DNA from: an uncultured Azospirillaceae bacterium
GTDB taxonomy: Bacteria; Pseudomonadota; Alphaproteobacteria; RF32; CAG-239
Length of the DNA stretch: 64,000 bases
Reading direction: 5' to 3'
NCBI GenBank assembly: GCA_964655915.1
Contig: CAZZNV010000001.1
Location: forward strand, 10,012 to 74,011
Shown: positions 49,365 through 64,000 of the stretch, piece after piece
How positions within the stretch are numbered: position 1 is the first letter of the stretch
Layout: each line of letters opens with the position of its first letter
The notes under the pieces: model-generated
Told to the model about the DNA's origin: nothing
The model's database searches: none
The model's input: only the letters and a program-made list of their open reading frames with translations
Program-made: the position numbers and the translations under genes

Positions 49365-49383
49365 AACCGAAGGATAGAAAGAA

Positions 49384-50508
49384 ATGGTTGATGAAGTAAA
49401 CAAGAGAAAACAATCTATTCAAAAAGCGATGAACAAGTTTAACGCTGTTGAGGAATATTATGCCAAAATGATAATGATATTTTCCAACAAAACGCGTTTG
49501 AAAATTTATAGAAAGATTGCCTCTTTGATGAAAAACCGCTTTTCCTTAATGGATGCCTTAGACATGTTGCATGATGGTGCAAGCAACGGCGGTAAAAACC
49601 CCAGTGAACCGTTAGCTATTGCGATTGCCGCATGGGCGATGGCATTAAACAACGGTTTACCTTTTTCCGATGCTTTAAAGGGGTGGGCACCTGACCGCGA
49701 AAGGCTGATGCTTTCCGTGGGTGACGTTTCTGACTTGGAAAGCGCCTTGCTAAACCTGATTAAAGTTACGGAAGGCTCAACTAAGATGGTTCGTCCGATT
49801 ATTGGCGCCGTTACCTATCCGTCATTTTTGATTATGATGTCTGTTTTGATTATTTATGCTATCGGTGTTTACATGGTGCCACCCATGATTGATGCTGCGC
49901 CAAACGTTGTTTGGCACGGAATGGCTGCCGACTTGGTGGGTTTATCGGCTTGGATTAAAGATAACTGGCTGGTGGCTTTTGCCTCTTTGCCCATAACCAT
50001 GGCTATTATTTACTTCACCATCGGAATTTGGACCGGCTCTATTCGCGCTTTTTTTGACCATATGCCCCCTTGGTCACTTTATAAAATCTTTACAGGTATC
50101 AGCTGGTTGTTGGCTCTTTCGGCACTGGTTAAGGGAGGCACCCCAGTTTCCACGGCGCTGAGAGCTTTGCGGCGCGATGCCAGTAAATATTTGAAAGAGC
50201 GAATTGACAAGACCCTTGTCTATATTAATAACGGTGACAACTTGGGACAGGCTCTGGCTAAAACGAAATTGGATTTTCCTGATAAAGAAATTATCGGTGA
50301 TTTGAAGATTTATTCCGAATTGGATAATTTTGAAGAGGCTTTGGATAATTTGGCTAATGAATGGCTGGAAGAATCCGTCTATATGATTGAGGAGAGAGCC
50401 GGCATTTTGAACATGGTCGCCCTACTCAGTATCGGTGCCGTTATTGCTTGGGCAGTTATGGGAACTTTTGAAATGCAAGATCAAATCACCAGCGGTATGG
50501 GAGGTTAA
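49384..50508 (+). CDS. GspF/PilC-family inner-membrane platform protein (PilR-like)
   Basis: 374 aa with three TM helices and GspF-type cytoplasmic domains. Immediately follows the ATPase. Confidence 0.75.
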   Translation: MVDEVNKRKQSIQKAMNKFNAVEEYYAKMIMIFSNKTRLKIYRKIASLMKNRFSLMDALDMLHDGASNGGKNPSEPLAIAIAAWAMALNNGLPFSDALKGWAPDRERLMLSVGDVSDLESALLNLIKVTEGSTKMVRPIIGAVTYPSFLIMMSVLIIYAIGVYMVPPMIDAAPNVVWHGMAADLVGLSAWIKDNWLVAFASLPITMAIIYFTIGIWTGSIRAFFDHMPPWSLYKIFTGISWLLALSALVKGGTPVSTALRALRRDASKYLKERIDKTLVYINNGDNLGQALAKTKLDFPDKEIIGDLKIYSELDNFEEALDNLANEWLEESVYMIEERAGILNMVALLSIGAVIAWAVMGTFEMQDQITSGMGG

Positions 50509-50509
50509 G

Positions 50510-51154
50510 ATGAAAGATTGGCAAGAAAAATTGAAAAATGAATACGGCTTGGCGATAAAAAGAAAGCTGACCGACTTTGAGGTTATGCTGATTAAGCGGT
50601 TTTGCCTGACAAAAAAGGAGAAAAAAACGGCATTCCTGTTGCTTGGTGCAGGCTTAATCGGAATTGTCGCCACGATTATCCTCGCACGTCTTGGCTCGGT
50701 TTCCGGTTTAACAGAAACAGCACAAGAAGTGCAGCAATTATCAGCAAACATTCGGCACTATTATCAAAATCGCCCTGACTTTTGGGGTCTGGATACGCAA
50801 ACGGTTGTGGAAAAGGGTATTTCTCCTAAAAGTATGTCTCATCAAAAGGGGCTGCAAGGATTTTGGGGCAATCCGGTTTCCGTCGGGAATGGATCAGAAG
50901 GTACAATGCTTATGCCCGGAAGTCGGACGTTTGACATTGTTTATAAAAATTTGGATCGCAAACAATGTATGGCTTTGGCGCCCTACAAGTTTGATGAGAC
51001 GTTTTTTATGGGATTGTCTTATATGATACTTATCAAGGATAATACTCAAGAAACGTTTTCTTGGGACAATCCGGTGAAAAAACTTCCGATTACGGCGGCG
51101 ATGGCTAAAGAATTTTGCGGTACAAACAATAATATTTTATGGCATTTTGAATAG
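50510..51154 (+). CDS. Hypothetical single-TM membrane protein in pilus cluster
   Basis: GGAGG RBS then ATG 2 nt after the platform gene's stop; the ORF track begins at 50435, overlapping the upstream gene. TM (TAFLLLGAGLIGIVATIILA). Confidence 0.35.
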   Translation: MKDWQEKLKNEYGLAIKRKLTDFEVMLIKRFCLTKKEKKTAFLLLGAGLIGIVATIILARLGSVSGLTETAQEVQQLSANIRHYYQNRPDFWGLDTQTVVEKGISPKSMSHQKGLQGFWGNPVSVGNGSEGTMLMPGSRTFDIVYKNLDRKQCMALAPYKFDETFFMGLSYMILIKDNTQETFSWDNPVKKLPITAAMAKEFCGTNNNILWHFE

Positions 51155-51415
51155 AAAGTTCCTTTACTTTTACTGTTGGATTGTTTTGTAAAAATATTTG
51201 CTTTTTGTTAATTATTTTTCTATAAAAATGTTTAGAAATGGAGTGGTGCTTGAGGGCATACTCTGATAATTGTCCCTGGAAGGGTGTTGGTTATAGCTAA
51301 AGTTATAACGGATATATCGAATGAGCAATGAAATATGACCAAGGATAAGATTGTTCATTATTTGTTAATCTGTTATATTTATACTATGAGCAACAGATAA
51401 ATGAGGAGAATTAAA

Positions 51416-52069
51416 ATGAGTACTTTATATAAAAATGAGCAGGCCGGCCGTTCGATGGTTGAAATGCTCGGTGTTTTAGCGATTATCGGGGTATTGTCTA
51501 TCGGTGGTATTTCCGGATATTCTAAAGCGATGGCTAAGTTCAGAGTTAACAAAACGATGGATCAGATTTCAATGTTGGTTATGAACATCCGTACATTGTA
51601 TTCGGGTAACGTTAACTATGATGGGTTGAATGATAAAGTGGCTATTCAGATGGGTATTATTCCGAGAGACATGCTCCCTTCAGGAACAACTGAGGCAACG
51701 GCATCTAAGATTATTAATGCGTATCAGGGAGAGGTTAAGGTCGGAGCGGCAAATGTTGGCGGCGCTAATCGTTCTTTCTTTGTTACCTATTCCGGTTTAA
51801 CCCGTGAAGCTTGCGTAGCTATTGCAACGGCAGATTGGGGTTCTCAAGCTGGTTCAGGCTTGCAAGCTATTCAAATTAAGGGAACAGCAAGTAACAAGGA
51901 CAAGACAGTGACTTTATCTACTGCTGAGGTTTGTGGTTCGGCGGATAGTAGTGCGGCTGGCGCTGGTTGCCATCCTATTGATGCATTGCCAGTTTCCTTG
52001 GCCAAAGCGGCTGTTGAGTGTCAAAATACAGCGGATGGAGGTAATGAGGTTCGCTGGGACTACTACTAA
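51416..52069 (+). CDS. Type IVb prepilin (PilS-like major pilin)
   Basis: GAGGAG RBS 7 nt before ATG. Leader MSTLYKNEQAG, then a mature N-terminus RSMVEMLGVLAIIGVLSIGG with Glu at +5 and a hydrophobic alpha1 helix. C-terminal Cys pair (ACVAIA...VCGS...GCHP...ECQ). ORF track start 51401 is 5 codons upstream. Confidence 0.7.
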   Translation: MSTLYKNEQAGRSMVEMLGVLAIIGVLSIGGISGYSKAMAKFRVNKTMDQISMLVMNIRTLYSGNVNYDGLNDKVAIQMGIIPRDMLPSGTTEATASKIINAYQGEVKVGAANVGGANRSFFVTYSGLTREACVAIATADWGSQAGSGLQAIQIKGTASNKDKTVTLSTAEVCGSADSSAAGAGCHPIDALPVSLAKAAVECQNTADGGNEVRWDYY

Positions 52070-52090
52070 TCTCAAGGAAATATTCTTCTC

Positions 52091-52122
52091 AAAAAAGGCT
52101 ATGGAAACATAGCCTTTTTTAT
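52091..52122 (+). terminator. Rho-independent terminator after pilin gene
   Basis: Hairpin AGGCTATGGAAACATAGCCT followed by T6. Confidence 0.6.
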
Positions 52123-52452
52123 TGTGGCATCAGCGCATCAGAACAAAGCACCGGTTTCCTAAACATCACAGGTAAAAAACAGGGATAATATTTACATTTT
52201 CCGTCAGCGGCAGATGAGTTTGCGCCAAACAAACAACCGCCCCTTCTCCTACTTGAAGTCCGGCTTTTTCAATAGTTTTTTTGAATATACATCTGCAAAC
52301 CCCGACTATTTTATCATTTAATGCTAAAACAGTCGAAAATCATTTAAAGTCAAGCCACATTTACTCGGGTTTATATTGGTTTCGGCAATCTTAAATCTAT
52401 TAAAAAAACATCTTGCTTTTTGTTGCGTTTAACGTTAATTCATAGATAGGCC

Positions 52453-52529
52453 GTCGGCGTAGCTCATCAGGATAGAGCAACAGTTTCCTAAACTGTGGGT
52501 AGTGGGTTCGAGTCCCGCCGCTGACGCCA
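52453..52529 (+). tRNA. tRNA-Arg (anticodon CCU)
   Basis: Hand-folded cloverleaf. Acceptor GTCGGCG/CGCTGAC (one G-U pair). D-arm GCTC-ATCAGGATA-GAGC. Anticodon arm ACAGT-TTCCTAA-ACTGT. T-arm GTGGG-TTCGAGT-CCCGC. Discriminator G plus encoded CCA. Confidence 0.8.
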
Positions 52530-52533
52530 AAAT

Positions 52534-52563
52534 AAAAAAACACCCCAATTAGGGTGTTTTTTT
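52534..52563. terminator. Bidirectional terminator shared by tRNA-Arg and the convergent sulfatase-family gene
   Basis: A-run, hairpin ACACCCC-AATTA-GGGTGT, T-run. Confidence 0.55.
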
Positions 52564-52606
52564 CGTGAGTAATAAGCTATTGAACTCGTGATACTGAGAT
52601 GTTTAG

Positions 52607-54088
52607 CTACCTCATCGCCCGCTCAACAATACCATGGACAAAGCCTGTTATCTGAGGAAATGATATTCTTCCCTCGTGCGCTAAATTTTTATTTTTATCA
52701 TAAACTAATAACAGCGTCTCATTTGTTCGCGGCCCCAATCCCTGTTTCTTTCCTTCTTCCGAGAACAAAAAGCCCGTTTCGCTCGGATGATCCGAATAAA
52801 TGATAAATAAACTGTCTTTGGGCGATTGTTCAATCAACTTTTGCAATGCCTTATCCACATAATTAATTGAATTGACATATTTTTCTTCTATGTTTTTCGG
52901 ATTTTCAAACGGATACCTGTTTTTTTCACCTATCTGATAATAGACATGAGAACTGAGCGTGATGAAGAAATTAAACTGTTTGGGTGCATTAACTTTTTTG
53001 TTTTGCGCCAACATAAAATCAACAACATCCTCGTCATCTATTCCCATCTCACCCTGATTAATATCTTTCGGCATATTCTCTAGAAAAAACACTTCGGAAA
53101 AGGGGAATTGTCGGTAAGCATCTCCTCGGTGGTAAAAATTTCTGATATAACCGTGGAAAAAAGAAGTATGGTATCCAAGTTTATTAAATTTCTCAGGAAG
53201 AGAAACAAATTTCTTGAAGAACGAATTGGGTAAAACAATATACATTGCCGCGAACAAATCCTCATTATTGGTTAATTTGCTCATTAATGAAAAATCGGCA
53301 TTTGCCGAACAGTAATGTGACAACGGCTTAACCTGATAAACAGCACTTTGCGGCGCAATGGACTGTAAAAACGGCATTATCTTTTTGCCTTTTACTTCTC
53401 CCGTAAAAGCGGCATAATCCAGACTTTCAACCTGAATCAGGTAAACATTATCGGGAAGTGACACCTTTGCCAGCTCTTTAGGAAGCGGTAGGGTCGGCAG
53501 ATTAATGTTATCCAGCGTTTCTTTGGCAATGCGTTTTCTGTCATAACTGGTCATGCCCTCATATATCCATCCTTGCATATACCCCAGTGTTTTGGTATAG
53601 GCATTAAAATCCATTTGGAGAAAAGGCTGGTTATTAAATGTTTTGAACGTTATTCCTAACAGCACCAGTAACGGAATATAAAATATTGACCGCCAACGCC
53701 AATCTTTTTGTGTTTTCACCCCTCCTAAAAGCCATAATTGCACAATAAAAAAGAGCAAGGCAATCACCTGTTCAGATTCAAGTATCTGTAATCCTGAATT
53801 TTTAACAAACTCAAATCCTTCTTTGTATTGCAATACTCCCATCATGATGGAAAAAGGACTCTCAAAATGCGAATGCCAAATAAGTAGTAAAGAATTGACA
53901 AGCCATTGCAAAGTCAGCATGCCGGCCATTATCCAACGCGGCAGAGTCATGATTGCACCCCAGAAACAAAAGCTCATCAAAAGAAGTATTATATCTCCAA
54001 GAAATACAAGTTCACTAGAGAAGAACAGCCTCTGCATGATAACTGCTTCTATACTGCAAAAAAATAAAAATAACAGATTTTTTATCAT
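52607..54088 (-). CDS. Sulfatase/alkaline-phosphatase-superfamily membrane transferase (LtaS/MdoB/EptA-like: phosphoglycerol or phosphoethanolamine transferase)
   Basis: Five N-terminal TM helices, then a sulfatase domain (YLIQVESLDYAAF; GYHTSFFHG; NYVDKAL; FIIYSDHPSETG). Confidence 0.65.
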   Translation of the reverse strand: MIKNLLFLFFCSIEAVIMQRLFFSSELVFLGDIILLLMSFCFWGAIMTLPRWIMAGMLTLQWLVNSLLLIWHSHFESPFSIMMGVLQYKEGFEFVKNSGLQILESEQVIALLFFIVQLWLLGGVKTQKDWRWRSIFYIPLLVLLGITFKTFNNQPFLQMDFNAYTKTLGYMQGWIYEGMTSYDRKRIAKETLDNINLPTLPLPKELAKVSLPDNVYLIQVESLDYAAFTGEVKGKKIMPFLQSIAPQSAVYQVKPLSHYCSANADFSLMSKLTNNEDLFAAMYIVLPNSFFKKFVSLPEKFNKLGYHTSFFHGYIRNFYHRGDAYRQFPFSEVFFLENMPKDINQGEMGIDDEDVVDFMLAQNKKVNAPKQFNFFITLSSHVYYQIGEKNRYPFENPKNIEEKYVNSINYVDKALQKLIEQSPKDSLFIIYSDHPSETGFLFSEEGKKQGLGPRTNETLLLVYDKNKNLAHEGRISFPQITGFVHGIVERAMR

Positions 54089-54186
54089 GTTCTCCCCCTA
54101 AGCAGTTGTTTAGCATAACTTACTTTATTATTTATTAAGATATTTGAGGTAGAGTTTGGGGAAGAGATTTATAAAGAGGTTTAAAA

Positions 54187-55149
54187 ATGGCGACAATTAC
54201 AGAAACAAAATTTTCAGATATTTACATTGCACCGGATAAAACGGCTTATATTCCGGACGGCACCACCAGTAGCGGATTGATGGAATTTCACCCTGATGAC
54301 TTTGAAGAGTTTTTTCAATTGATTGAAAAAGGCTGGCCGGGAGATAATCCCAGTTATTCAGTCATCTATCACAATATTTTTTATCGTGTGGAGCGAACGG
54401 AGGCTTTATACGGCATTCAATATTGCGCCAGAAAGATGCCCGAGCAAACACCTCCTTTTAGAACTCTTGGCTTTGGACATGAGTTGGAAACTTATATGCT
54501 GCGGCTGGCTAAAACATCGGGATTAATCTTGTGGTCCGGTCCGACCGGAGCCGGCAAAACGACTTCTATTTCGGCTTTGTTGCGTGAATATTTGCTCATG
54601 GAAGGTGGTTTTGCCTATACAATTGAAGATCCGACAGAACAACCGCTGGACGGTGTTTACAAATCTGTTACCGGCAGTCTCGGTTTGTGCAAGCAAACTA
54701 TTCCGCACAATGGTGATTGGGGCGCTTCGCTGAAATCTGCTTTGCGCTCAAAACCTCGTTTTATTTTGGTTGGTGAGATTCGTACTCCGGAAACAGCCAG
54801 CGAAGTGCTACGCGCGGCAACTTCAGGACACTTGGTTCTTTCAACCATTCACGCTAATAATGTTACTGATGCTATCAGTTCTGTTGTTAAATACGCTTCT
54901 GCTGCGAATATGTCTGAAGAATTGGCTTATGACCTGTTCTCTCGCAGTATGCTGGCCGTTTTGCACCAGACAATGACAGGAACCAGCGTTAAAAGACCTA
55001 AGACAACTTACTTGTTTGCCAACCCCAACACATCAAAAGGTGACCAAGTGCGCGGAATCATTAAAAGCGGAAAACTTAATTTGGGTACAGCTATCGAAAC
55101 GCAAATGATTCGTATGGCTCAGGGAATGCCGTTATTCACAGATGAATAA
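54187..55149 (+). CDS. PilT-family secretion/retraction ATPase
   Basis: 320 aa. Walker A (WSGPTGAGKTTSI), Asp box (AYTIEDPTEQ), Walker B/His box (ILVGEIRTPETASEVLRAATSGHLVLSTIHANN). Confidence 0.7.
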   Translation: MATITETKFSDIYIAPDKTAYIPDGTTSSGLMEFHPDDFEEFFQLIEKGWPGDNPSYSVIYHNIFYRVERTEALYGIQYCARKMPEQTPPFRTLGFGHELETYMLRLAKTSGLILWSGPTGAGKTTSISALLREYLLMEGGFAYTIEDPTEQPLDGVYKSVTGSLGLCKQTIPHNGDWGASLKSALRSKPRFILVGEIRTPETASEVLRAATSGHLVLSTIHANNVTDAISSVVKYASAANMSEELAYDLFSRSMLAVLHQTMTGTSVKRPKTTYLFANPNTSKGDQVRGIIKSGKLNLGTAIETQMIRMAQGMPLFTDE

Positions 55150-55152
55150 CTG

Positions 55153-55587
55153 TTATTCTATATCCCAAGGAAAGACAATCCATTCATCAGGAAGAGCGCG
55201 GGCGAAAATGTCCGCCTCTTTTTTACCCTGAGGTTTAGCATAGACAGATGCCAAGCAAGCCGACGGAAACATTTTGCGCAAAAGCTGAAAACTCCGCCCT
55301 GTATCGGACAAGTCATCGATAATCAGAGTTTGAGAATCGGCTTTCTGCACATCGCTTTCAATTTTGACGTCTTTATCTCCCAATCTGCCGTTTTCGTCAT
55401 AACTCACCATGTTAACCGTTTCACAATGTCGAATGCCCAGCTCATAGGCGACAATACCCGCCGGAATCAACCCTCCGCGGCTTATGGCAATGATACGGTT
55501 AAACTCCCCTTTCTTTTTAATCTCTTTGACCAAATTTTTTACATCTTGATGAAATTCATTCCACGTCAGGTACAGTTTATTAGTCAT
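55153..55587 (-). CDS. gpt: Xanthine-guanine/hypoxanthine phosphoribosyltransferase
   Basis: PRTase fold motif (TLIIDDLSDTGRS) and RGGLIPAGIVAYELGIRH. Start taken at MTNKLYLTWNEF (about 145 aa); the ORF track begins 35 codons upstream, inside the next gene. Confidence 0.65.
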   Translation of the reverse strand: MTNKLYLTWNEFHQDVKNLVKEIKKKGEFNRIIAISRGGLIPAGIVAYELGIRHCETVNMVSYDENGRLGDKDVKIESDVQKADSQTLIIDDLSDTGRSFQLLRKMFPSACLASVYAKPQGKKEADIFARALPDEWIVFPWDIE

Positions 55588-56131
55588 TTTCCGGCATTCC
55601 TTCTCCATGTTGGGATTTGATTTTATAAATATATTCAATGACGTCTTCATTATCCCATTGAGCAGAACCGCGAATCCGTCCAATCTCTTCACCCTTTTTG
55701 TTTATAATAACCGTATGCGGTGAAGAAAAAATTCCAAAGTCCTCTGTTAATTTTCCTTTTTTATCAACGTAAAATTCTAAATCTTGCCCTTTAAACTTTT
55801 TCAAAAAACGTTCTTGCTCTTCCATATTGTTCCATTCTTCCGCTTTGGATACGAGAATCGTCCTGATGCCGTTTGAGCGGGTTTTGTTTGAAAACTCATT
55901 CAGGCTTTGCAGCTCTTTAATGCATGGAATACAATGTTTTGACCAGAAGTTTACCAACAAAAATTCGCCCTTAAACTTATCAAATGTTACACCATGGCCA
56001 AATGAATCATAAAACTCGCGCTGCGGCGCTTTCCGCGGGTAAGCGAATATGTTTAAGCCTTTTGAACTCACTGATGTCGCTGGAAAAAGCATTACGCCGA
56101 ACAAAACAAGAATCCCGATTTTTTTTAACAT
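55580..56131 (-). CDS. TlpA/ResA-like periplasmic thiol:disulfide oxidoreductase (thioredoxin fold)
   Basis: Signal peptide. WSKHCIPC CxxC active site inside a thioredoxin-like fold. Confidence 0.7.
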   Translation of the reverse strand: MLKKIGILVLFGVMLFPATSVSSKGLNIFAYPRKAPQREFYDSFGHGVTFDKFKGEFLLVNFWSKHCIPCIKELQSLNEFSNKTRSNGIRTILVSKAEEWNNMEEQERFLKKFKGQDLEFYVDKKGKLTEDFGIFSSPHTVIINKKGEEIGRIRGSAQWDNEDVIEYIYKIKSQHGEGMPEND

Positions 56132-56215
56132 TTTCCCTCTGTATAAACTTAAATTTTACTTAACCCTTGCCGGATATAGTTATACTATATTCATCAACAA
56201 GTAAAGGAATGGTAT

Positions 56216-56338
56216 ATGAAAAAATTTTTTCTTCTGGTTACGTTGTTTGCTCTTTTAGGCGTTTGCGCCTGCGGCAAACTTTCCGCTCCCGAACCCTATC
56301 CCGACAGTGGGTATCCCCACTCTTACCCTAGAAAATAA
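56216..56338 (+). CDS. Small lipoprotein (40 aa), hypothetical
   Basis: AAGGA RBS 10 nt upstream. MKKFFLLVTLFALLGVCACGKLSAPEPYPDSGYPHSYPRK. Below the ORF-track size cutoff, so speculative. Confidence 0.3.
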   Translation: MKKFFLLVTLFALLGVCACGKLSAPEPYPDSGYPHSYPRK

Positions 56339-56358: not shown

Positions 56359-57045
56359 ATGATTGCGGATAAAGATTTTGGAAATGAGATGATTCCCTAT
56401 GTGGAATTTGCAGATAATGCAAACGAGCGCACACCTTGCGTTTTGGTTTTAGATTGTTCAGGCTCTATGCGAGGAGAACCCATAAAACAGCTTAATGCCG
56501 GATTAAAGGCTTTGGAACGTGAGCTAAAAGAGGACATTGATGCCAGTTCGCGCGTGCAACTCCTTATTATTAAGGCTTTTGGAAAAGATGAAGCGGTTGT
56601 CTCTTCCGACTGGATTGATGCCATGAACTTTACGGCTCCGACAATGGAGGCCGGCGGCTTAACCCCCTTGGGCAAAGCGATGGAACTGGCTTTGAAGAAA
56701 ATTGAGGACCAGAAATGTTTGTATGACAGTTGCGGTATTACGTCTAAACGCCCTTGGATTTTCCTTATAAGCGATGGAGAACCCACGGATTATGATTGGG
56801 AGATTATTGCAGAAAAGTGCCGTTATGCTCAACAAAACAAAAAGGTTGTGGTACACGCGGTCGGTACGCAAGATGCTAATTTGGAAAAGCTGGCAAAATT
56901 TTCGCTTATGTCCCCCAAGCGTTTAACCGGTCTTAAATTTACGGAATTTTTCTTGTGGCTGAGCCGCAGTGTTTCTTGCATTTCGAAGGCTGCACCCAAC
57001 ATTCCGGATCTTTTGGAAGATATTGGCGAGTGGAATGAAGATTAA
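56359..57045 (+). CDS. von Willebrand factor A (vWA) domain protein, TerY-like
   Basis: MIDAS motif (VLVLDCSGSMRGEP), followed by later T and D positions (ISDGEPTD). About 228 aa, typical of TerY-type vWA proteins. Confidence 0.7.
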   Translation: MIADKDFGNEMIPYVEFADNANERTPCVLVLDCSGSMRGEPIKQLNAGLKALERELKEDIDASSRVQLLIIKAFGKDEAVVSSDWIDAMNFTAPTMEAGGLTPLGKAMELALKKIEDQKCLYDSCGITSKRPWIFLISDGEPTDYDWEIIAEKCRYAQQNKKVVVHAVGTQDANLEKLAKFSLMSPKRLTGLKFTEFFLWLSRSVSCISKAAPNIPDLLEDIGEWNED

Positions 57046-57787
57046 ACGGCAAAATATTAAAGTTGTGGCAGCCAGTGTAACCGGTGCTTTGCACCGACAC
57101 AAGGAATTACCGTGTCAGGATTTTTTTCAGCACACCTTCGGGCGTAACTTTGTGGCTGTGGTGTCTGACGGAGCCGGTTCCGCAAAATATGGGAAAATCG
57201 GCGCACGAACAATCTGTTCAACTTTATGCGATTTGCTAAAAAACGCCGCTTTTCAAAATGTGGAACACGTTGTACCTCAGGCTATTGACGTGGCTCGCAG
57301 GAAGTTGATGCGCCACCGCCTTAACAAAACAAAAGACGAAAAAGGTTTGGCGGATTTCGCAGCGACGATTGTCGGACTGGTTCATTATAAAAAACGCGGT
57401 ATCTTCTTCCATATTGGTGATGGAGCCGCTATTGCCTTAGAAGGTATTACGGGGAAGAATTTTACAGCTTCTCGACCGGCAAACGGTTCTTTTTCGTGTG
57501 AAACATTTTTCTTTACGCAAAGTGATTGGCGCAAAAATCTGCGCTTTACGGCTTTTGAAAACGCCAACACCGTTTTTTTGATGAGCGACGGATTAACAAC
57601 ATTTTCCTTTGCGAATGATTATCGCGATATTGAAAAAAACTTTGTTTTACCGATTAATGACTTTTTAAAAGAAGAAAAACTTAAAACAAAAGCTGAGCGG
57701 GCTCTGATTAACACCTTAAACATGCCCAAAGCACAAAAAATAAATTCTGATGACAAAACATTGGTTTGGGCGGAGGTTTGGCCGTGA
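57035..57787 (+). CDS. PP2C-family Ser/Thr protein phosphatase
   Basis: Paired metal-binding Asp-Gly motifs (VVSDGAGSAKYG; FLMSDGLTTF). Start chosen at MKIKRQNIKV, overlapping the vWA stop; the ORF track starts 22 codons earlier. Confidence 0.65.
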   Translation: MKIKRQNIKVVAASVTGALHRHKELPCQDFFQHTFGRNFVAVVSDGAGSAKYGKIGARTICSTLCDLLKNAAFQNVEHVVPQAIDVARRKLMRHRLNKTKDEKGLADFAATIVGLVHYKKRGIFFHIGDGAAIALEGITGKNFTASRPANGSFSCETFFFTQSDWRKNLRFTAFENANTVFLMSDGLTTFSFANDYRDIEKNFVLPINDFLKEEKLKTKAERALINTLNMPKAQKINSDDKTLVWAEVWP

Positions 57788-59244
57788 CCGACACATTGGA
57801 AAATTCGGTGTATAATGCCGTCTATGCCGACGGCTCTGCTGACAAAATTGTTCTCGGAGAACTCATTAACAGAGGCGGAGCTTCAGGAAAAATATATTTG
57901 GTTGGCAACAAACCCGGTTTTGTGGCAAAGATTTTTCATAACCTGAATAAAAGCAAAACCAATCGTAAAAAACTGGAAGCCATGCTTTTGAACAAACCCA
58001 ATTTTGAACCGGTTGAAAGCAACGGTACAAAGTATATTCAAATCGCTTGGCCGGAGGCTATTTTAGAAGATGAAAAAGGGTTTTGCACGGGGTATTTGAT
58101 GCCCCTCATCAAAATGGAAGAAGCCGTATCTTTGGACCATTTGATGCAAAAAGCCATTCGGCAAAAACTGTATTTGCCGGAAAAATACGCTTATCGCATT
58201 TTTGCAGCTTATAATCTGGCCTCTATGGTAACATCATTGCACAAATGCGGACACTATATTGTTGACCTGAAACCTTCAAATGTATCCGTTTATAAAGAAA
58301 ATATGCTTATTGCCATGGTAGATTGTGACGGATTTTCCATTTGCGGTGAAAATGCCCGATATCCGGCGGAATTTGTCAGCGAAGAATATATCTATCCCGA
58401 AGGTATGGATAAATCATGTGAAGAAATGGGAGAAGAGCAGGATAAATTTGCTCTTGCCGTTATTATCTTTAAGCTCTTAAACAACGGAATACATCCTTTT
58501 TCCGGAATGCCTCGCAAAAATGACGGGGAACGGCTGACTATTCAGAACAGAATCGAAAAACATCATTATGCCTATGGCTTGTGGCCCGATAATTATCAAT
58601 CCCCTCACCCTTACAGTATTCATGAATACTTTGATAAAGAAACTCTGGAACTTTTTGAGCGTTCGTTTGCACAAGAGGGGAATCGCCCAACGGCCTATGA
58701 ATGGCAAGAACATTTGTGGAAACTTATGCACCATTTGCGCCAGTGTAAAAAAGATGCAAACCATGTGTATTTCACATCTAAGGGGTGCGGTCTTTGCGTG
58801 AGCGAAGACAGATTTTTGGCTGATATGAAAGAACGAAAAAGCAAGTTCTATAAGCCTGAAAAAATTCGAGGTATTGAAGTCAGCGAACTTTCTGCTGAAA
58901 AAAATGAACAAAATAAAAAGGTTCAATTAGCACATGATACCAAAATGCAAAAAATCGGAATTGCGGTTCTGGCAGCCTTTGTCTTGTTTTTTGCTTTCCT
59001 CTTCAAGCTTTTACAGTATTTTTCCACAACCATTATCCAAACAGGTGTTGGTTTTCAGGCTTTTTTGATTACATTGACCTTGTTTGGCATTCACAAGGGT
59101 TTTCAATGCGCTGAAGATAAATTAACTCTTTTTAAGAACAAAACATTAACCAATATGTTGTTGGTTTATGCTTTTTTCTGCGTGTTTATCGCCTTAATTT
59201 CCATTAATGATATTCCACAGAATCTTCTTGATTTGGCGCAATAA
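57766..59244 (+). CDS. Hanks-type Ser/Thr protein kinase with C-terminal membrane segments
   Basis: Gly-rich loop plus VAK Lys (RGGASGKIYLV...GFVAKIF), catalytic loop (HYIVDLKPSNV) and a DFG-equivalent (MVDCDGFS). Two C-terminal TM helices. TTG (57766) or GTG (57784, overlapping the PP2C stop) start. Confidence 0.65.
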   Translation: MGGGLAVTDTLENSVYNAVYADGSADKIVLGELINRGGASGKIYLVGNKPGFVAKIFHNLNKSKTNRKKLEAMLLNKPNFEPVESNGTKYIQIAWPEAILEDEKGFCTGYLMPLIKMEEAVSLDHLMQKAIRQKLYLPEKYAYRIFAAYNLASMVTSLHKCGHYIVDLKPSNVSVYKENMLIAMVDCDGFSICGENARYPAEFVSEEYIYPEGMDKSCEEMGEEQDKFALAVIIFKLLNNGIHPFSGMPRKNDGERLTIQNRIEKHHYAYGLWPDNYQSPHPYSIHEYFDKETLELFERSFAQEGNRPTAYEWQEHLWKLMHHLRQCKKDANHVYFTSKGCGLCVSEDRFLADMKERKSKFYKPEKIRGIEVSELSAEKNEQNKKVQLAHDTKMQKIGIAVLAAFVLFFAFLFKLLQYFSTTIIQTGVGFQAFLITLTLFGIHKGFQCAEDKLTLFKNKTLTNMLLVYAFFCVFIALISINDIPQNLLDLAQ

Positions 59245-59294: not shown

Positions 59295-60683
59295 GTGAAA
59301 AAACTTAATCCGATTATGATTTCGGGAAAAGAAGTTTACCCTCTTATTGAAGGCGGCAAAGGCATTAATGCCAGTGATGGTCGCAGCAGCGGTGCTTGGG
59401 CACACGAAGACTGTGTGGGTACTTTTTCCGGTGTTAGTCCGGACTACTATGACAGCCTAGGCAATGTCATTTTGGAAAAATATTTTAACAGAGACCGTAA
59501 AGAACGCCACATGGAAATGATAGAGCAATCTATTAAAGGCGGGGTTGCTCAGGCACAGATTGCACACGAAATATCCGGCGGGAAGGGACGTATTCATATG
59601 AATATGCTCTGGGAACTTGCCGGTTCAGAGCAGATACTTAATGGCGTTTTGGAGCGTGCCAAGGGTTTGATTAACGGTATTACTTGTGGTGCCGGAATGC
59701 CTTATCGTTTGGGTGAATTAGCCTCTAAGTTCGGCGTTTATTACTACCCTATCGTATCGTCTGCCAGAGCTTTCCAAATTTTGTGGAAGCGCGCATATAA
59801 TCGCTTTGTTGATTTTTTGGGCGGCGTTGTTTATGAAGACCCTTGGTTGGCCGGCGGACACAACGGGTTGTCCAATGCGGAAGACCCCACACAGCCCCAA
59901 ACGCCGTATTTGCGCGTTGTTGCCCTTCGCAAGGCAATGAATGAGCTCGGGCTGAACAATTTGCCGATTATTCTGGCCGGTGGCGTGTGGAGCTTGAAAG
60001 AATGGGACGAATATATTGATAATCCTGATGTTGGGAAAGTGGCTTTCCAATTTGGGACAAGACCTATGATTACAAAGGAAAGTCCTGTTAGCGATGCTTG
60101 GAAGCGTCTTATGCTTCAACTCAAAAAGGGCGATGTTATTTTACAGCGATTTAGCCCCACAGGGTTCTTTTCTTCAGCAATTAAGAATACCTTTTTGGAA
60201 AATTTAATGCGTAGAAAACAAGGCGAGGTAGCCTTTAAGGTTGAAGCTGACGATGTTTTTTGCCACCCGCTGAATGTTTCAAAAACAAAAATGATTTTCA
60301 TCAAACAGGAAGACGCCGAGAAAGCTGTTAATCAAATTAACGCCGGTTATACAGAGATTAAAGAAACCCCTGATGAAACCGTTGTTTTCTTGTCTCCCGA
60401 AGAATGGAAACAAATGAAAGAAGACCGCAAGAATTGTGTCGGTTGCTTGTCGCAATGTCAGTTTTCTTCATGGTCTCAGGCAAAAGGGCATTCCGGACGC
60501 TTACCTGATCCGCGTTCTTACTGCATTCACAAAACGCTTTATGATGTTAGTCACAATGGTAATATTAAAGATAATTTGCTGTTTGCCGGACATCAGGTTT
60601 ATCGTTTTGCGACAGATCCTCTTTACAGAAACGGGATTCCTTCTGTTAAGGAGCTTATAGATCGTATAAAATCAGGTGATTAG
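59295..60683 (+). CDS. NMO-like (nitronate monooxygenase/enoyl-reductase-type TIM-barrel) flavoprotein with Cys-rich C-terminal extension; tentative
   Basis: GTG start 7 nt after an AAGGA RBS. N-terminal PLIEGGKG and later LPIILAGGVWS resemble NMO FMN-binding motifs. Low confidence. Confidence 0.35.
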   Translation: MKKLNPIMISGKEVYPLIEGGKGINASDGRSSGAWAHEDCVGTFSGVSPDYYDSLGNVILEKYFNRDRKERHMEMIEQSIKGGVAQAQIAHEISGGKGRIHMNMLWELAGSEQILNGVLERAKGLINGITCGAGMPYRLGELASKFGVYYYPIVSSARAFQILWKRAYNRFVDFLGGVVYEDPWLAGGHNGLSNAEDPTQPQTPYLRVVALRKAMNELGLNNLPIILAGGVWSLKEWDEYIDNPDVGKVAFQFGTRPMITKESPVSDAWKRLMLQLKKGDVILQRFSPTGFFSSAIKNTFLENLMRRKQGEVAFKVEADDVFCHPLNVSKTKMIFIKQEDAEKAVNQINAGYTEIKETPDETVVFLSPEEWKQMKEDRKNCVGCLSQCQFSSWSQAKGHSGRLPDPRSYCIHKTLYDVSHNGNIKDNLLFAGHQVYRFATDPLYRNGIPSVKELIDRIKSGD

Positions 60684-60793: not shown

Positions 60794-60884
60794 GGATAGA
60801 TGGCCGAGTGGTCGAAGGCGCACGATTGGAAATCGTGTATACCTCCAAAGGGTATCCAGGGTTCGAATCCCTGTCTATCCGCCA
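60794..60884 (+). tRNA. tRNA-Ser (anticodon GGA)
   Basis: Hand-folded. Acceptor GGATAGA/TCTATCC. D-arm GCC-GAGTGGTCGAA-GGC. Anticodon arm CACGA-TTGGAAA-TCGTG. Long variable arm typical of class II. T-arm CAGGG-TTCGAAT-CCCTG. Discriminator G and CCA encoded. Confidence 0.8.
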
Positions 60885-60986: not shown

Positions 60987-61583
60987 TTATCCCGCCTTCG
61001 TTTTTAGGTATGTATATAATGTTTTATAATCCACTTTTAGCATACAAGCTATCTTTGTTTTAGGTATATTTTGTAACAACATTTTATCAATCAACGCCTC
61101 TTTTCCAGATAGCTTGGTGACTTTATTTTTTCTTCCTTTCGGCCTTCCGATAGGTTTGTTTTCGGCTTTTAATCTGGCCAAACTTTGTTTGGTGCGCTGA
61201 GATATTAAGTTGCGTTCTATTTCTGCAGACAAACCAAAGGCAAACGCCAAAACTTTACTTTGAATATCTGAACCTAATTTATAATTATCTTTAATTGTCC
61301 ATACCTGACAATTTATGTTCATGCAATAATGTAAAATGCTCATTACTTGTAAGAGATTGCGCCCCAGTCGGCTTAATTCACTTGCAATAACAATATCATC
61401 CGGTTTTAATTTTTTTAATAGTTTGCCTAATTTTCTATCTTTCAAATCTTTTTTTGATGAAATTGTTTCCTCAATCCATTGGCTAACACAAATATTATTT
61501 TCTCTGGCAAAATTTTCTATTTCAAATTTTTGATTTTCTTGATGCTGTAAATCGGTTGATATTCTAATATAACCATAAATCAT
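60987..61583 (-). mobile_element. Small serine recombinase (resolvase/Hin-Gin invertase family) gene
   Basis: AAGGAG RBS 5 nt before ATG. N-terminal catalytic motif (MIYGYIRISTDLQHQENQ), with the catalytic Ser near residue 10. C-terminal HTH (KTKIACMLKVDYKTLYTYL). About 198 aa. Adjacent to tRNA-Ser and to perfect inverted repeats. Confidence 0.8.
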
Positions 61584-61652
61584 GACTACTCCTTTCCATT
61601 TGTTTGCTAAAAAGGGTAGGCTAAAAAGATATATAACATATTGAAAATAAAT

Positions 61653-61787
61653 GAACAATTCTTTTCCATAGTATCTTGTATATCCTAAAAGTCAATAAAG
61701 TTTTCATCTATCAATGCTAATGTGCCAGGCGCGCGTATCTCGTTTGATTTTAAAAACAAGTTATAATACTATGGAAAAGAATTGTTC
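61653..61787. repeat. Perfect 22-bp inverted repeats (61653-61674 GAACAATTCTTTTCCATAGTAT and 61766-61787 ATACTATGGAAAAGAATTGTTC) flanking a 91-bp segment: candidate invertible DNA switch
   Basis: The two 22-mers are exact reverse complements. They lie between the recombinase gene and the OMP gene. The enclosed segment ends in a consensus TATAAT. Confidence 0.6.
61739..61767 (+). promoter_or_regulatory. Candidate sigma70-type promoter (-10 TATAAT at 61762-61767, weak -35) inside the inverted-repeat-bounded segment, oriented toward the OMP gene
   Basis: Perfect TATAAT 87 nt upstream of ATG 61854. The -35 region is poor (TCGTTT). Confidence 0.3.
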
Positions 61788-61853: not shown

Positions 61854-62528
61854 ATGAATAAAGCTTTATTGTTAGCCGGTGTTGCCACAGTATTATTTGC
61901 TGCCAATGCCAACGCAATTGAATATACTCCTTATGTTTCAGCAAAGGTAAGTTATGCAAAAACTGATGTAGATTATTCACAAATGCATGGCAAAACATAC
62001 CGTTCATCAGATTTAGATGATAAAGTTTGGGGTGCTAAACTTGCTGTCGGCGTTGCAACTCCTGTTCCACATGGTGCTGTAAGAACCGAATTGGAATATG
62101 CTTTCTCTCAAACATTTAAAGCTGATTTTACAGATGCTGAAACAGCAAAGGCCGGCGGTAGAGCTAAGATGAAAGGCGATATTAATACATATATGTTGAA
62201 CGCCTATTATGATATTGACACAGGAACTAAATTTACTCCTTATGTTGGAGCCGGTATGGGTGTTGCTCGCCTTAAAGCCAGAGGAAATGTTGATTTCGAC
62301 GGTGAAAGAGTTTCTGACTTCAGCAAATCTAAAAACAATTTTGCTTGGCAACTCGGTGCCGGTGCCGCTTATGCTTTGACGGACAACGTATCTGTTGATG
62401 TCGGATACAGATATACAGATGCAGGAAAAGTAAATGGCACAGCTTCCTTCACAGGAGATGACAAACCCAGCATCAAAACAGAAACTACTATGCATGAATT
62501 CCTACTCGGTGCAAGATATAGCTTCTAA
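61854..62528 (+). CDS. Outer-membrane beta-barrel protein (OmpA-like/Omp25/Opa/OmpX-type small porin family)
   Basis: AAGGA RBS. Signal peptide MNKALLLAGVATVLFAANANA. Alternating amphipathic beta-strands with aromatic girdle residues. C-terminal RYSF with terminal Phe. 224 aa. Confidence 0.7.
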   Translation: MNKALLLAGVATVLFAANANAIEYTPYVSAKVSYAKTDVDYSQMHGKTYRSSDLDDKVWGAKLAVGVATPVPHGAVRTELEYAFSQTFKADFTDAETAKAGGRAKMKGDINTYMLNAYYDIDTGTKFTPYVGAGMGVARLKARGNVDFDGERVSDFSKSKNNFAWQLGAGAAYALTDNVSVDVGYRYTDAGKVNGTASFTGDDKPSIKTETTMHEFLLGARYSF

Positions 62529-62648: not shown

Positions 62649-64000
62649 TTATTGCCTTTGCCGTTTCAACCCCTGAAGGATAGAAATTATCATTTGATTC
62701 TTATCCTGATTCCGTTGTTTATACAGCTCATTTTGCCGCATATAACCTTTTCCGAAGACATAATCATAACAAGCCTCAATAACCGGGCGCCACTCCGGAT
62801 TTAGGCGAGTTTTACCTTCATCTACAATCAGTGGCGGTGTGTCGGTATCGGTTATTCCACTCAAACGAAACAGTTGGCAACCGTTATCCACCTTATCGCC
62901 CACTTTCCAATCCCCACCGGAAATCTTAACAACAACACGGTCTTCTCTGGGGTTTGTAGCGTAGGGTGTTTGGCTGTTCAGACTCTTGTAGGAAGAGAAG
63001 TCAAGCTTCCACTCCCCGCTTTCTTGTTTCTTAATCTCGTAAAAACCGGGTTTTAGATTTCTCTGAATCTCAGCTTTATGCCCCTTAGCCTGAGTTGAGT
63101 GAACCTTGAGGTAAAACTCACCGGAATTGAAAGCATAAGCCCTATGAATATCCGCAGACTTTTCACGCAACCGGCGGAAAACGTTTTGTACCTCCGTATC
63201 ATTAAAATCTGCATAACTGCTTAACAATGATATTTTTAACAACGAAGGTATTCCGCTGTTTTCAGCATCTTTAGACATTTGAGCGGTTGGACCTTGTTGG
63301 CGATCATTGATTTCATTTATCCATATTTTTCCGTTTTTATCTATCATTAAATCGGCACCGGCCAGTCCTACATGGCCGGCTAATGCCAATGTTTTTGACA
63401 ATTTAAAGCCTATTTCCGATATTTGTTGCTGAATATCCTCAGGGTAAACATATCCGACATCATTCCCGACACCATTACTCTTGCTGCTGGTCAAATGCTC
63501 GTCACCGACAGCTTTAAGCGTTCCTCTGCCGACGACCGTGACAATATTTTCTTCGTTAATGCCTTGGGCGGCCGCTTTCGCCGTCAACACGTCCAACGTT
63601 TGCGGGTCAAACGCATTCATCTCAGGAGATAAGTCTATTTTTTTAGCGCCTAAAATATTTTCCGCCGCTAACAGATTGCCGGCAAAAAACGACAAGTTAC
63701 TTTCATAACCGCTGATGTATTTAGCAACTTTTCTTTTGGTTCCGGTTTCTTTTATATTTTTTACAAAACTGGCGCAATCCTCAAAAAACAAAGTACCCTT
63801 GCCGGCCGTATTGCCGTTTTCAGAACAGCAATCCTGAACAACAACGCGCCCCTTTTCATCTTTGAGACGATCATAAACATCAACCAATTCATCTATGGAA
63901 GTTTTTCCGTCAACCCTTTCTACCGGTATTTTGTAGGCTGAAAGGCCGGCTTTATCCAAAATATAGCTCAAATTTCCTTTTTCTTCAAAATAGCCGCGCT
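62649..64000 (-). CDS. ATP-grasp superfamily ligase-like protein, 5' end outside window
   Basis: The reading frame stays open upstream of the track's TTG at 63971 to the window edge. ATP-grasp C-terminal signature (GHVGLAGADLMIDKNGKIWINEINDRQQGP) followed by an additional roughly 200-aa C-terminal domain. Confidence 0.45.
   Translation of the reverse strand, partial: RGYFEEKGNLSYILDKAGLSAYKIPVERVDGKTSIDELVDVYDRLKDEKGRVVVQDCCSENGNTAGKGTLFFEDCASFVKNIKETGTKRKVAKYISGYESNLSFFAGNLLAAENILGAKKIDLSPEMNAFDPQTLDVLTAKAAAQGINEENIVTVVGRGTLKAVGDEHLTSSKSNGVGNDVGYVYPEDIQQQISEIGFKLSKTLALAGHVGLAGADLMIDKNGKIWINEINDRQQGPTAQMSKDAENSGIPSLLKISLLSSYADFNDTEVQNVFRRLREKSADIHRAYAFNSGEFYLKVHSTQAKGHKAEIQRNLKPGFYEIKKQESGEWKLDFSSYKSLNSQTPYATNPREDRVVVKISGGDWKVGDKVDNGCQLFRLSGITDTDTPPLIVDEGKTRLNPEWRPVIEACYDYVFGKGYMRQNELYKQRNQDKNQMIISILQGLKRQRQ

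Follow-up and report, generated by a model that had tools for sequence, protein, structure and literature searches.

A vWA, PP2C and Ser/Thr kinase triad of the TerY-P/YegL-PphC-YegI family as a probable core signalling module of an uncultured gut alphaproteobacterial lineage

Introduction

TerY-P triads combine a vWA (von Willebrand factor A) protein resembling TerY, a PP2C phosphatase and an STK (serine/threonine kinase) with a C-terminal zinc ribbon (PMC11090510). The related chromosomal locus of Escherichia coli encodes YegL, PphC (YegK) and YegI in the order vWA, PP2C, kinase. YegI is an active, Mn-preferring kinase that requires K39 and D141, carries a D-S-D loop instead of DFG and is autophosphorylated at Ser162 of this loop (YegI paper), and PphC is a Mn-dependent phosphatase with an essential D46 that dephosphorylates YegI (bioRxiv 10.1101/303594). 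Here we describe a triad with the same gene order, likewise chromosomal, at positions 56359-59244 of a 64,000-nucleotide stretch of DNA from an uncultured Azospirillaceae bacterium (contig CAZZNV010000001.1; the whole stretch is referred to as the window). We read it, with a probability of about 0.6, as an old, vertically inherited and chromosomally fixed core signalling module of an uncultured gut alphaproteobacterial lineage.

TerY-P/YegLKI triads are very widespread, yet not even the E. coli system has a known signal, substrate or physiological role. Related protein combinations occur in better described circuits. In Pseudomonas aeruginosa, the PpkA/PppA/Fha1 threonine-phosphorylation pathway of the type VI secretion system (T6SS) pairs a membrane Hanks kinase with a PP2C phosphatase and involves a vWA domain, which is fused to the PpkA kinase and periplasmic. 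In Sulfolobus, the vWA protein ArnB is sequentially phosphorylated by the Hanks kinase ArnC, which switches its binding to ArnA (PMC6509490, PMC12852372). Among newer work on the mechanism of TerY-P/YegL proteins, we found nothing beyond the CoCoNuT paper.

Results

The triad occupies one conserved chromosomal site throughout the lineage

Scanning one genome per GTDB species recovered 70 loci, all of them in uncultured gut or rumen metagenome-assembled genomes of the 'Alphaproteobacteria bacterium', 'Proteobacteria bacterium CAG:495' and 'Azospirillum sp. 51_20' types. The vWA and PP2C genes were found in 71 loci, and a minus-strand tlpA gene lay adjacent and divergent in all loci with enough upstream DNA (68/68). 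A separate scan of metagenome contigs added 75 lineage contigs with the same order (divergent TlpA, then vWA, PP2C and STK) as well as five outgroup triads, which keep the order vWA, PP2C, STK at identities of 52-58% (vWA), 35-39% (PP2C) and 40-45% (STK). Because the arrangement recurs in about 70 species, it is not due to chance. Exact-sequence look-up of the window kinase and of the identical database protein P0001 returned no contig on record; the gene context of relatives was drawn from P0090 and from the collection scans.

The surroundings of the locus are those of a chromosome, with housekeeping genes such as cmk and rpsA in locus L001 and genes for RsmB, an M20 peptidase, flagellin and an FeFe hydrogenase in locus L065. 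GC content is flat across the triad and its surroundings (0.40-0.43), and the unit is bracketed neither by att-like direct repeats nor by an integrase, an Mpi-family invertase lying outside it, past tRNA-Ser. Synonymous sites are saturated in every gene (synonymous divergence, pS, 0.74-0.80), so that the similarity among loci reflects selection and not recent transfer. Pairwise divergence of triad genes also co-varied with that of their neighbours (Spearman 0.54-0.81; STK-PilT 0.81, vWA-PilT 0.74, STK-TlpA 0.62), as it did for the control pair NMO-PilT (0.66).

An earlier, sequence-only reading had placed the triad between tRNA-Arg and tRNA-Ser, where both tRNAs are indeed found in the window, and had taken this placement as consistent with acquired accessory DNA. 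The latter proposal is contradicted by the lineage-wide synteny, the flat GC content, the saturated pS, the co-varying divergence, the variable tRNAs and the absence of att repeats. tRNA-Ser follows the gene for a flavoenzyme related to nitronate monooxygenase (NMO) only in the closest relatives, the tRNAs are missing or placed differently in many others, and several loci lack any tRNA in the nearest 8 kb; given the varying tRNA positions and the absence of att-like repeats, an island bounded by the two tRNAs was rejected. The same reading had named conservation of the three genes as core genes as an outcome that would speak against it, and their synteny with tlpA across the lineage amounts essentially to this outcome. 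The genes and elements of the locus are as follows (positions in the window).

52453-52529: tRNA-Arg(CCT)
55580-56131, minus strand: TlpA/ResA-like periplasmic thiol:disulfide oxidoreductase with a CIPC motif (Pfam Redoxin/AhpC-TSA, NCBIfam TlpA)
56160-56208, plus strand: promoter-like element and ribosome-binding site (sequence and conservation across relatives)
56216-56338, plus strand: small lipoprotein gene, 40 aa, first of the predicted operon (signal peptide, lipobox, conservation)
56359-57045, plus strand: TerY/YegL-type cytoplasmic vWA protein, 228 aa (PF00092, YegL homology)
57035-57787, plus strand: PP2C_2-family Ser/Thr phosphatase, 250 aa (PF13672, PphC homology)
57784-59244, plus strand: YegI-type membrane-anchored Ser/Thr kinase, 486 aa (PF00069, YegI homology)
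59295-60683, plus strand: NMO/FabK-like flavoenzyme, 462 aa (PF03060)
60794-60884: tRNA-Ser(GGA)

The three triad genes were described at the outset as overlapping and co-directional, and the open reading frame (ORF) scan bears this out, with plus-strand ORFs at 56359-57045, 56969-57787 and 57766-59244 whose stop and start codons overlap. The likeliest PP2C start is the ATG at 57035, inside the longest ORF, which yields 250 aa and an 11-nt overlap with the vWA gene (the L001 orthologue is called at 249 aa). For the kinase, the likeliest start is the GTG at 57784, in a GTGA that forms a 4-nt overlap with the PP2C gene, with GGAGG 7 nt upstream; this start agrees with P0001 (486 aa, 100% identical).

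The triad is a genuine member of the TerY-P/YegL-PphC-YegI family

The proposed TerY-P-like architecture was recovered in full, as a TerY-like vWA protein, a PP2C phosphatase and an STK with a zinc module are encoded by adjacent, co-directional genes in that order. Since all elements of the published TerY-P definition (PMC11090510) are present, the locus is a genuine member of the known TerY-P/YegL-PphC-YegI family. Hidden Markov model searches matched each protein to the expected Pfam family (PF00092, PF13672, PF00069), and each has its homologue in E. coli: the vWA protein to YegL (41% identity, E 1e-47), the phosphatase to PphC (28%, E 5e-16) and the kinase to YegI (26% over 328 residues, E 2e-28). 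Lineage orthologues carry the JGI label 'uncharacterized protein YegL'. The gene order vWA, PP2C, STK is shared with E. coli, with plasmids and with the outgroup metagenome loci. In the nearest of these outgroup triads (L080, 1622-3036), a small ORF for a DnaJ-like CxxC zinc finger comes first, followed by a pair of TerY-like vWA genes in tandem and then by PP2C and STK.

The 4-nt overlap of the PP2C and kinase genes has its parallel in most E. coli strains (YegI paper). YegI and the window kinase further share the VAK lysine, the catalytic aspartate, a D-x-D loop that replaces DFG, the Zn knuckle and a membrane anchor. However, YegI has 648 aa, two transmembrane (TM) helices and a long C-terminal cytoplasmic region with a weak HhH match, whereas the window kinase, at 486 aa, has three TM helices and lacks a C-terminal domain. 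Its catalytic loop is near-canonical (IVDLKPSN), that of YegI reads VGDVNQNS, and the D-x-D loop is D-C-D instead of D-S-D. The E. coli locus has neither the upstream lipoprotein gene nor a TlpA neighbour, and its layout differs between strains, with yegJ interrupting it in K strains (YegI paper).

Among plasmids, the window vWA protein matched 2,301 records. The majority are enterobacterial ter plasmids, each of which has two or three copies at 32-33% identity. In a Klebsiella example, the order is TerA, TerD, ATP-grasp, PRTase and further genes, followed by vWA, TerD, vWA, TerY-C, PP2C and kinase. Like the triads of ter clusters, of CoCoNuT/McrBC loci and of the Gao 2020 system, the window locus unites a MIDAS vWA protein, a PP2C phosphatase and an STK with a zinc module in one operon. 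Unlike them, it has no ter genes, no nuclease, helicase or McrBC partners and no mobile context, it carries one vWA gene instead of two or three, its kinase ends in TM helices where the Gao 2020-type kinase has an OB fold, and it is probably fixed in the core genome, with an added lipoprotein gene.

The vWA protein is the most constrained component

The vWA protein matched PF00092 above cutoff (E 1.3e-6), and its MIDAS (D32-x-S34-x-S36, T102, D139), which had been read from the sequence before, is intact and invariant among 63 distinct lineage sequences. In the same set, 147 of the 228 columns are invariant. Identities to the window proteins and median non-synonymous divergence (pN) for the triad and its neighbours were:

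vWA: 84-94% identity, median pN 0.077
NMO-like protein: 74-89% identity across lineage species, median pN 0.14
PilT-like ATPase: 66-84% identity, median pN 0.20
STK: 54-78% identity, median pN 0.22
PP2C: 52-70% identity, median pN 0.26
Gpt: 47-59% identity, median pN 0.29
TlpA: 41-66% identity, median pN 0.31

The vWA protein is thus by far the most constrained component and under very strong purifying selection, which suggests a conserved cellular partner bound through the MIDAS. A Ser-rich motif close to its C-terminus (FFLWLSRSVSCIS, residues 197-209) is likewise conserved, and the pattern F-x-W-[LV]-S-x-S-x4-S is common to the window protein, YegL, the plasmid triads and canonical TerY. 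In the AF2 model (pLDDT 76), the Ser cluster S202, S204 and S209 adjoins a low-confidence tail. Foldseek matched the model to vWA folds, including archaeal ArnB (8s05; E 1.7e-8, rmsd 3.6 A, 20-22% identity), a likeness at the level of the fold. ArnB, a cytoplasmic vWA protein, acts in the Sulfolobus ArnB/ArnA/ArnC/PP2A network as a phospho-switched adaptor in a Hanks-kinase/phosphatase circuit and offers an analogy for mechanism only, as it has extra beta-sandwich and helical domains, its partner ArnA is an FHA-Zn finger protein, the phosphatase is PP2A and not PP2C, and the genes form no triad operon. Compared with PpkA/PppA/Fha1, the window vWA domain is a separate cytoplasmic protein, and T6SS or FHA genes are absent nearby.

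The phosphatase matched PF13672 PP2C_2 (E 2.8e-35), in line with its earlier assignment, and its motifs SDGAGS, IGDGA, SDG and DDKT are invariant among the 63 distinct lineage sequences, as is the motif-II Asp that corresponds to D46 of PphC. Its active site appears intact, and the protein is a predicted phosphatase. Sequence searches of the PDB with the vWA profile and with the PP2C protein retrieved no solved structure.

The kinase retains its catalytic residues and a family-wide zinc knuckle

The kinase comprises a kinase domain (approximately residues 18-318), a Zn knuckle, a charged linker, three TM helices and a short tail. The Pfam match to PF00069 (E 2.2e-10) covers the C-lobe only; the N-lobe is supported by alignment and fold (AF2 pLDDT 74.7), with Foldseek matches to PknB (TMt 0.70) and other Hanks kinases. 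Loss of the catalytic Asp or Lys would have spoken against the sequence-only reading, and both are in place (D161 and K49). Residues G31, G32 and G35 of the glycine loop, K49, D161, K163, N166, D180-C-D182-G-F and E206 are invariant in 28 aligned lineage kinases. We extended the comparison to 145 sequences, comprising the window kinase, YegI, two plasmid kinases and 141 representatives of clusters at 50% identity. D161, D180 and D182 are kept in all of them, K49 in 142 and N166 in 144.

The Mg-binding loop of the whole family reads D-x-D-G-F in place of DFG (58321-58329, residues 180-182, in the window). Its middle residue, position 181, is Cys in this lineage and Cys, Thr or Ser in 87, 43 and 6 of the 145 sequences, respectively; that Cys181 might be redox-sensitive is a speculation. 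Immediately C-terminal to the kinase domain, C321, H327, C335 and C338 (nt 58744-58797; C-x5-7-H-xn-C-x2-C) form a predicted metal site and are kept in 145/145 sequences, including YegI and the plasmid kinases.

The C-terminal TM helices noted before are borne out by the AF2 model, which has three long hydrophobic helices at approximately residues 386-476 (nt ~58939-59211), two of which exceed the threshold of a hydropathy scan. In this model, the kinase is anchored by three C-terminal helices with almost no periplasmic domain, the loop having only about 10 residues. By the positive-inside rule, the K-rich loop that joins helices 2 and 3, together with the acidic tail, leads us to infer an N-in/C-out topology. 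The tail itself is conserved over about 12 residues (INDIPxNLLxLA), and beyond the charged linker and the helices no further Pfam domain was found in the C-terminus. The family comprises 6,852 clusters at 50% identity (E<1e-3), 618 of them at E<1e-30; the kinase and Zn module of homologues is 40-46% identical to that of the window, and the C-termini vary. A TM segment follows directly behind this module in 117 of the 142 nearest kinase representatives, so that membrane anchoring is typical of this branch and no novelty.

A conserved small lipoprotein gene precedes the triad

Twenty nucleotides upstream of the vWA gene, the window encodes a lipoprotein precursor of 40 codons (MKKFFLLVTLFALLGVCACGKLSAPEPYPDSGYPHSYPRK, 56216-56338), which consists of a signal peptide with a lipobox and a mature lipopeptide of about 22 aa. 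The sequence-only reading had missed this tiny conserved gene, which, together with the unusual constraint on the vWA protein, is new here. A corresponding ORF precedes the vWA gene by -1 to 28 nt in 71/72 loci, the one exception having no upstream DNA, and is annotated as a 43-aa gene in L001. All 64 distinct peptides have a conserved lipobox, and their mature parts of 21-23 residues, rarely up to 29, follow the consensus CGK-x-[SA]-x-P-x-P-x3-SGYPH[ST]YP. The mean pN of 0.205 against a pS of 0.752 indicates that the ORF is coding.

Among NCBIfam models, the precursor gave only lipoprotein-signal matches below cutoff, and the mature peptide is covered by no curated family. Membership in LptM was considered and rejected, since the LptM and PG1828 matches span the signal peptide only and fall below their cutoffs. 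A word-indexed protein search returned one protein only, in a database that represents short ORFs poorly, and conservation was therefore established directly on the loci. The gene is absent from the outgroup triad L080 and from E. coli.

The divergent intergenic region between the TlpA and lipoprotein genes measures 84 nt in the window and 73-103 nt across relatives. It contains a promoter-like -35 TTAACC (56160-56165), a 17-nt spacer and a -10 TACTAT (56183-56188), followed by the ribosome-binding site AAAGGA (56203-56208), and this arrangement (TTAACC-17 nt-TAnnAT and AAAGGA) is kept upstream of the lipoprotein ATG across relatives. The lipoprotein, vWA, PP2C and STK genes are thus predicted to be co-transcribed as a four-gene operon.

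Neighbouring genes and other features of the window

Besides TlpA, the neighbourhood includes an LtaS/sulfatase-like protein, a PilT-like ATPase, gpt and, past tRNA-Ser, the Mpi-family invertase (Pfam, NCBIfam). The gpt, TlpA and NMO-like neighbours listed by the sequence-only reading are all present in the window; across relatives, however, TlpA is invariant and the other two are merely frequent. The NMO-like gene directly follows the kinase in 55 loci and is absent or relocated in others, and some 44 loci have gpt and the PilT-like ATPase adjacent. The NMO/FabK-like gene probably lies outside the signalling module. Its product is far longer than the Pfam NMO model, with a Cys-rich C-terminal extension (CVGCLSQCQ...C), and its FabK match reaches only E 2.8e-4.

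Next to the gpt-to-NMO block, 40944-55149 holds a type IVb pilus cluster, with a PilS/bundlin-type pilin at 51401-52069, and the short PilT-like ATPase at 54187-55149 (compare L001, 13277-21458). The orientation of this block relative to the pilus cluster differs between genome types by an inversion, yet the two remain neighbours. Between the pilin gene and tRNA-Arg(CCT), outside the tRNA-to-tRNA interval that holds the triad, the 5' half of this tRNA recurs as a degenerate copy of 33 nt (82% identity; 52132-52164 versus 52461-52493, 329 nt upstream), which may be a tRNA fragment or remnant.

Just downstream of tRNA-Ser, GC drops to 0.31 around a perfect 22-nt inverted repeat (GAACAATTCTTTTCCATAGTAT, 61653-61674 and 61766-61787) that encloses a 91-nt segment. 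This segment lies between the start of the Mpi-family 'master DNA invertase' serine recombinase gene (60987-61658, minus strand; NCBIfam NF009949, 294 bits) and an outer-membrane beta-barrel gene (61854-62528), and looks like an invertible promoter switch for the latter. At the other end of the window, 1063-39610 carries a type IV secretion set with TrbL/VirB6, a TrbI domain, VirB4/TrbE and a TrbC-like N-terminus. Two giant proteins encoded among these genes (1511 and 1137 aa) have seven 5-fold beta-flower repeats each as well as RHS repeats; one of the two bears the TrbI domain as a C-terminal fusion. Large ORFs of 1383, 781, 709 and 571 aa in the same region had no Pfam match.

Discussion

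How the module might work can be sketched in part from its relatives. The kinase would be held in the inner membrane, its catalytic domain and Zn knuckle facing the cytoplasm, and, by homology with YegI and PphC, would autophosphorylate around the D-x-D loop and be reset by the co-translated phosphatase. The vWA protein would serve as an adaptor or phospho-target, with the W-L-S-x-S-x4-S Ser cluster near its C-terminus as candidate sites, and its MIDAS could, by analogy with ArnB, mediate metal-dependent binding to a conserved cellular partner. The lipopeptide of about 22 aa is a candidate periplasmic input that might touch the TM bundle or the C-terminal tail of the kinase, and the switch may be tied to the state of the envelope or to redox state, given the invariant divergent TlpA. 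Such an envelope or redox input, through lipopeptide and TlpA, to a kinase that lacks a sensor domain is the weakest step. Taken together, these steps would make the locus a domesticated TerY-P module that acts as a core trans-envelope sensor, with the lipopeptide as periplasmic ligand or co-sensor, the vWA protein as MIDAS-dependent phospho-reader or target coupled to an essential, slowly evolving partner, and TlpA possibly linking in thiol or redox status. We put this forward tentatively and regard it, in its full form, as rather unlikely.

Several points weigh against the picture of a core signalling module and the sketch built on it. To our knowledge, E. coli YegLKI has no known substrate, stimulus or phenotype. 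Core status was counted from positive matches only, and co-transcription is predicted from the arrangement of the genes. A generic promoter scan did not flag the TTAACC/TACTAT site, which fell below its threshold; the element is accepted because it is conserved and not because of the scan. Phosphorylation of the vWA protein and contact between lipoprotein and kinase are purely inferred.

The remaining counter-evidence comes from the family itself and leads to a different view of the locus, namely a TerY-P anti-phage system that became fixed in the lineage, in which the kinase/vWA pair senses infection and replication is blocked through the phosphorylation of host or phage proteins. Homologous triads on Azospirillum and Deinococcus plasmids stand in defence or mobile contexts, amid a GIY-YIG nuclease, DNA methyltransferases and transposases. 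TerY-P is also linked to CoCoNuT/McrBC systems (PMC11090510), the window kinase gives weak matches to PD-T4-6 kinase models, and a TerY-P variant is, in the accounts of Gao 2020 given in PMC11090510 and PMC7699616, an experimentally validated stand-alone anti-phage system. The kinase of that system, however, carries a C-terminal OB fold (PMC11090510), whereas the window kinase ends in TM helices, and no nuclease or other effector adjoins the triad. PADLOC found no match for the window vWA or PP2C protein, a negative that is uninformative since E. coli YegL and PphC, run as controls, were likewise unmatched. Presence throughout the lineage at one site with housekeeping flanks, and very strong purifying selection, above all on the vWA protein, are atypical of fast-evolving, patchy defence genes, and we judge a defence role to be rather improbable.

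Regulation of the neighbouring type IVb pilus or PilT-like ATPase through Ser/Thr phosphorylation is a further reading. Some 43 of the 72 loci have the ATPase and the PilS/bundlin pilin cluster no more than a few kb away, and these remain adjacent even after inversion of the gpt-to-NMO block. The fold match to ArnB, a phospho-switched vWA regulator of archaellum expression (PMC6509490, PMC12852372), points the same way. A local inversion would, however, keep the neighbourhood trivially, no FHA partner comparable to ArnA was seen, and an entire clade (for example L038-L047 and L065) has no pilus gene within 8 kb of an intact TlpA, lipoprotein, vWA, PP2C and STK arrangement, which leaves this explanation with little likelihood. 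Least probable is a part in tellurite or metal-stress (ter) resistance of the kind known from the canonical terZABCDE-TerY cluster. With TerY of enterobacterial ter plasmids, the vWA protein has 32-33% identity and shares the MIDAS and C-terminal motif, and PP2C and kinase genes follow TerY in the canonical cluster as well; yet TerZ/A/B/C/D/E, TerY-C and ter-associated biosynthetic genes are absent within about 10 kb, here and in relatives. The gpt gene and the ATP-grasp ORF at 62649-63971 were considered as ter 'nucleoside metabolite' genes and discarded, as gpt encodes an ordinary, bona fide xanthine phosphoribosyltransferase whose score exceeds the NCBIfam equivalog cutoff, and no relative has the ATP-grasp ORF conserved beside the triad.

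Taken alone, the locus is one more ordinary member of the family, from an organism that is uncultured. As a core signalling module, it argues against all TerY-P modules being mobile defence cassettes, and useful comparative evidence comes from a lineage that carries the module as a fixed, constrained single copy, joined by a lipopeptide and TlpA. The comparison singles out the vWA Ser cluster, the C-terminal tail of the kinase and the lipopeptide as candidates. If the locus were indeed a trans-envelope sensor, it would offer the first defined input and a tractable non-defence role for the YegL-PphC-YegI/TerY-P family.

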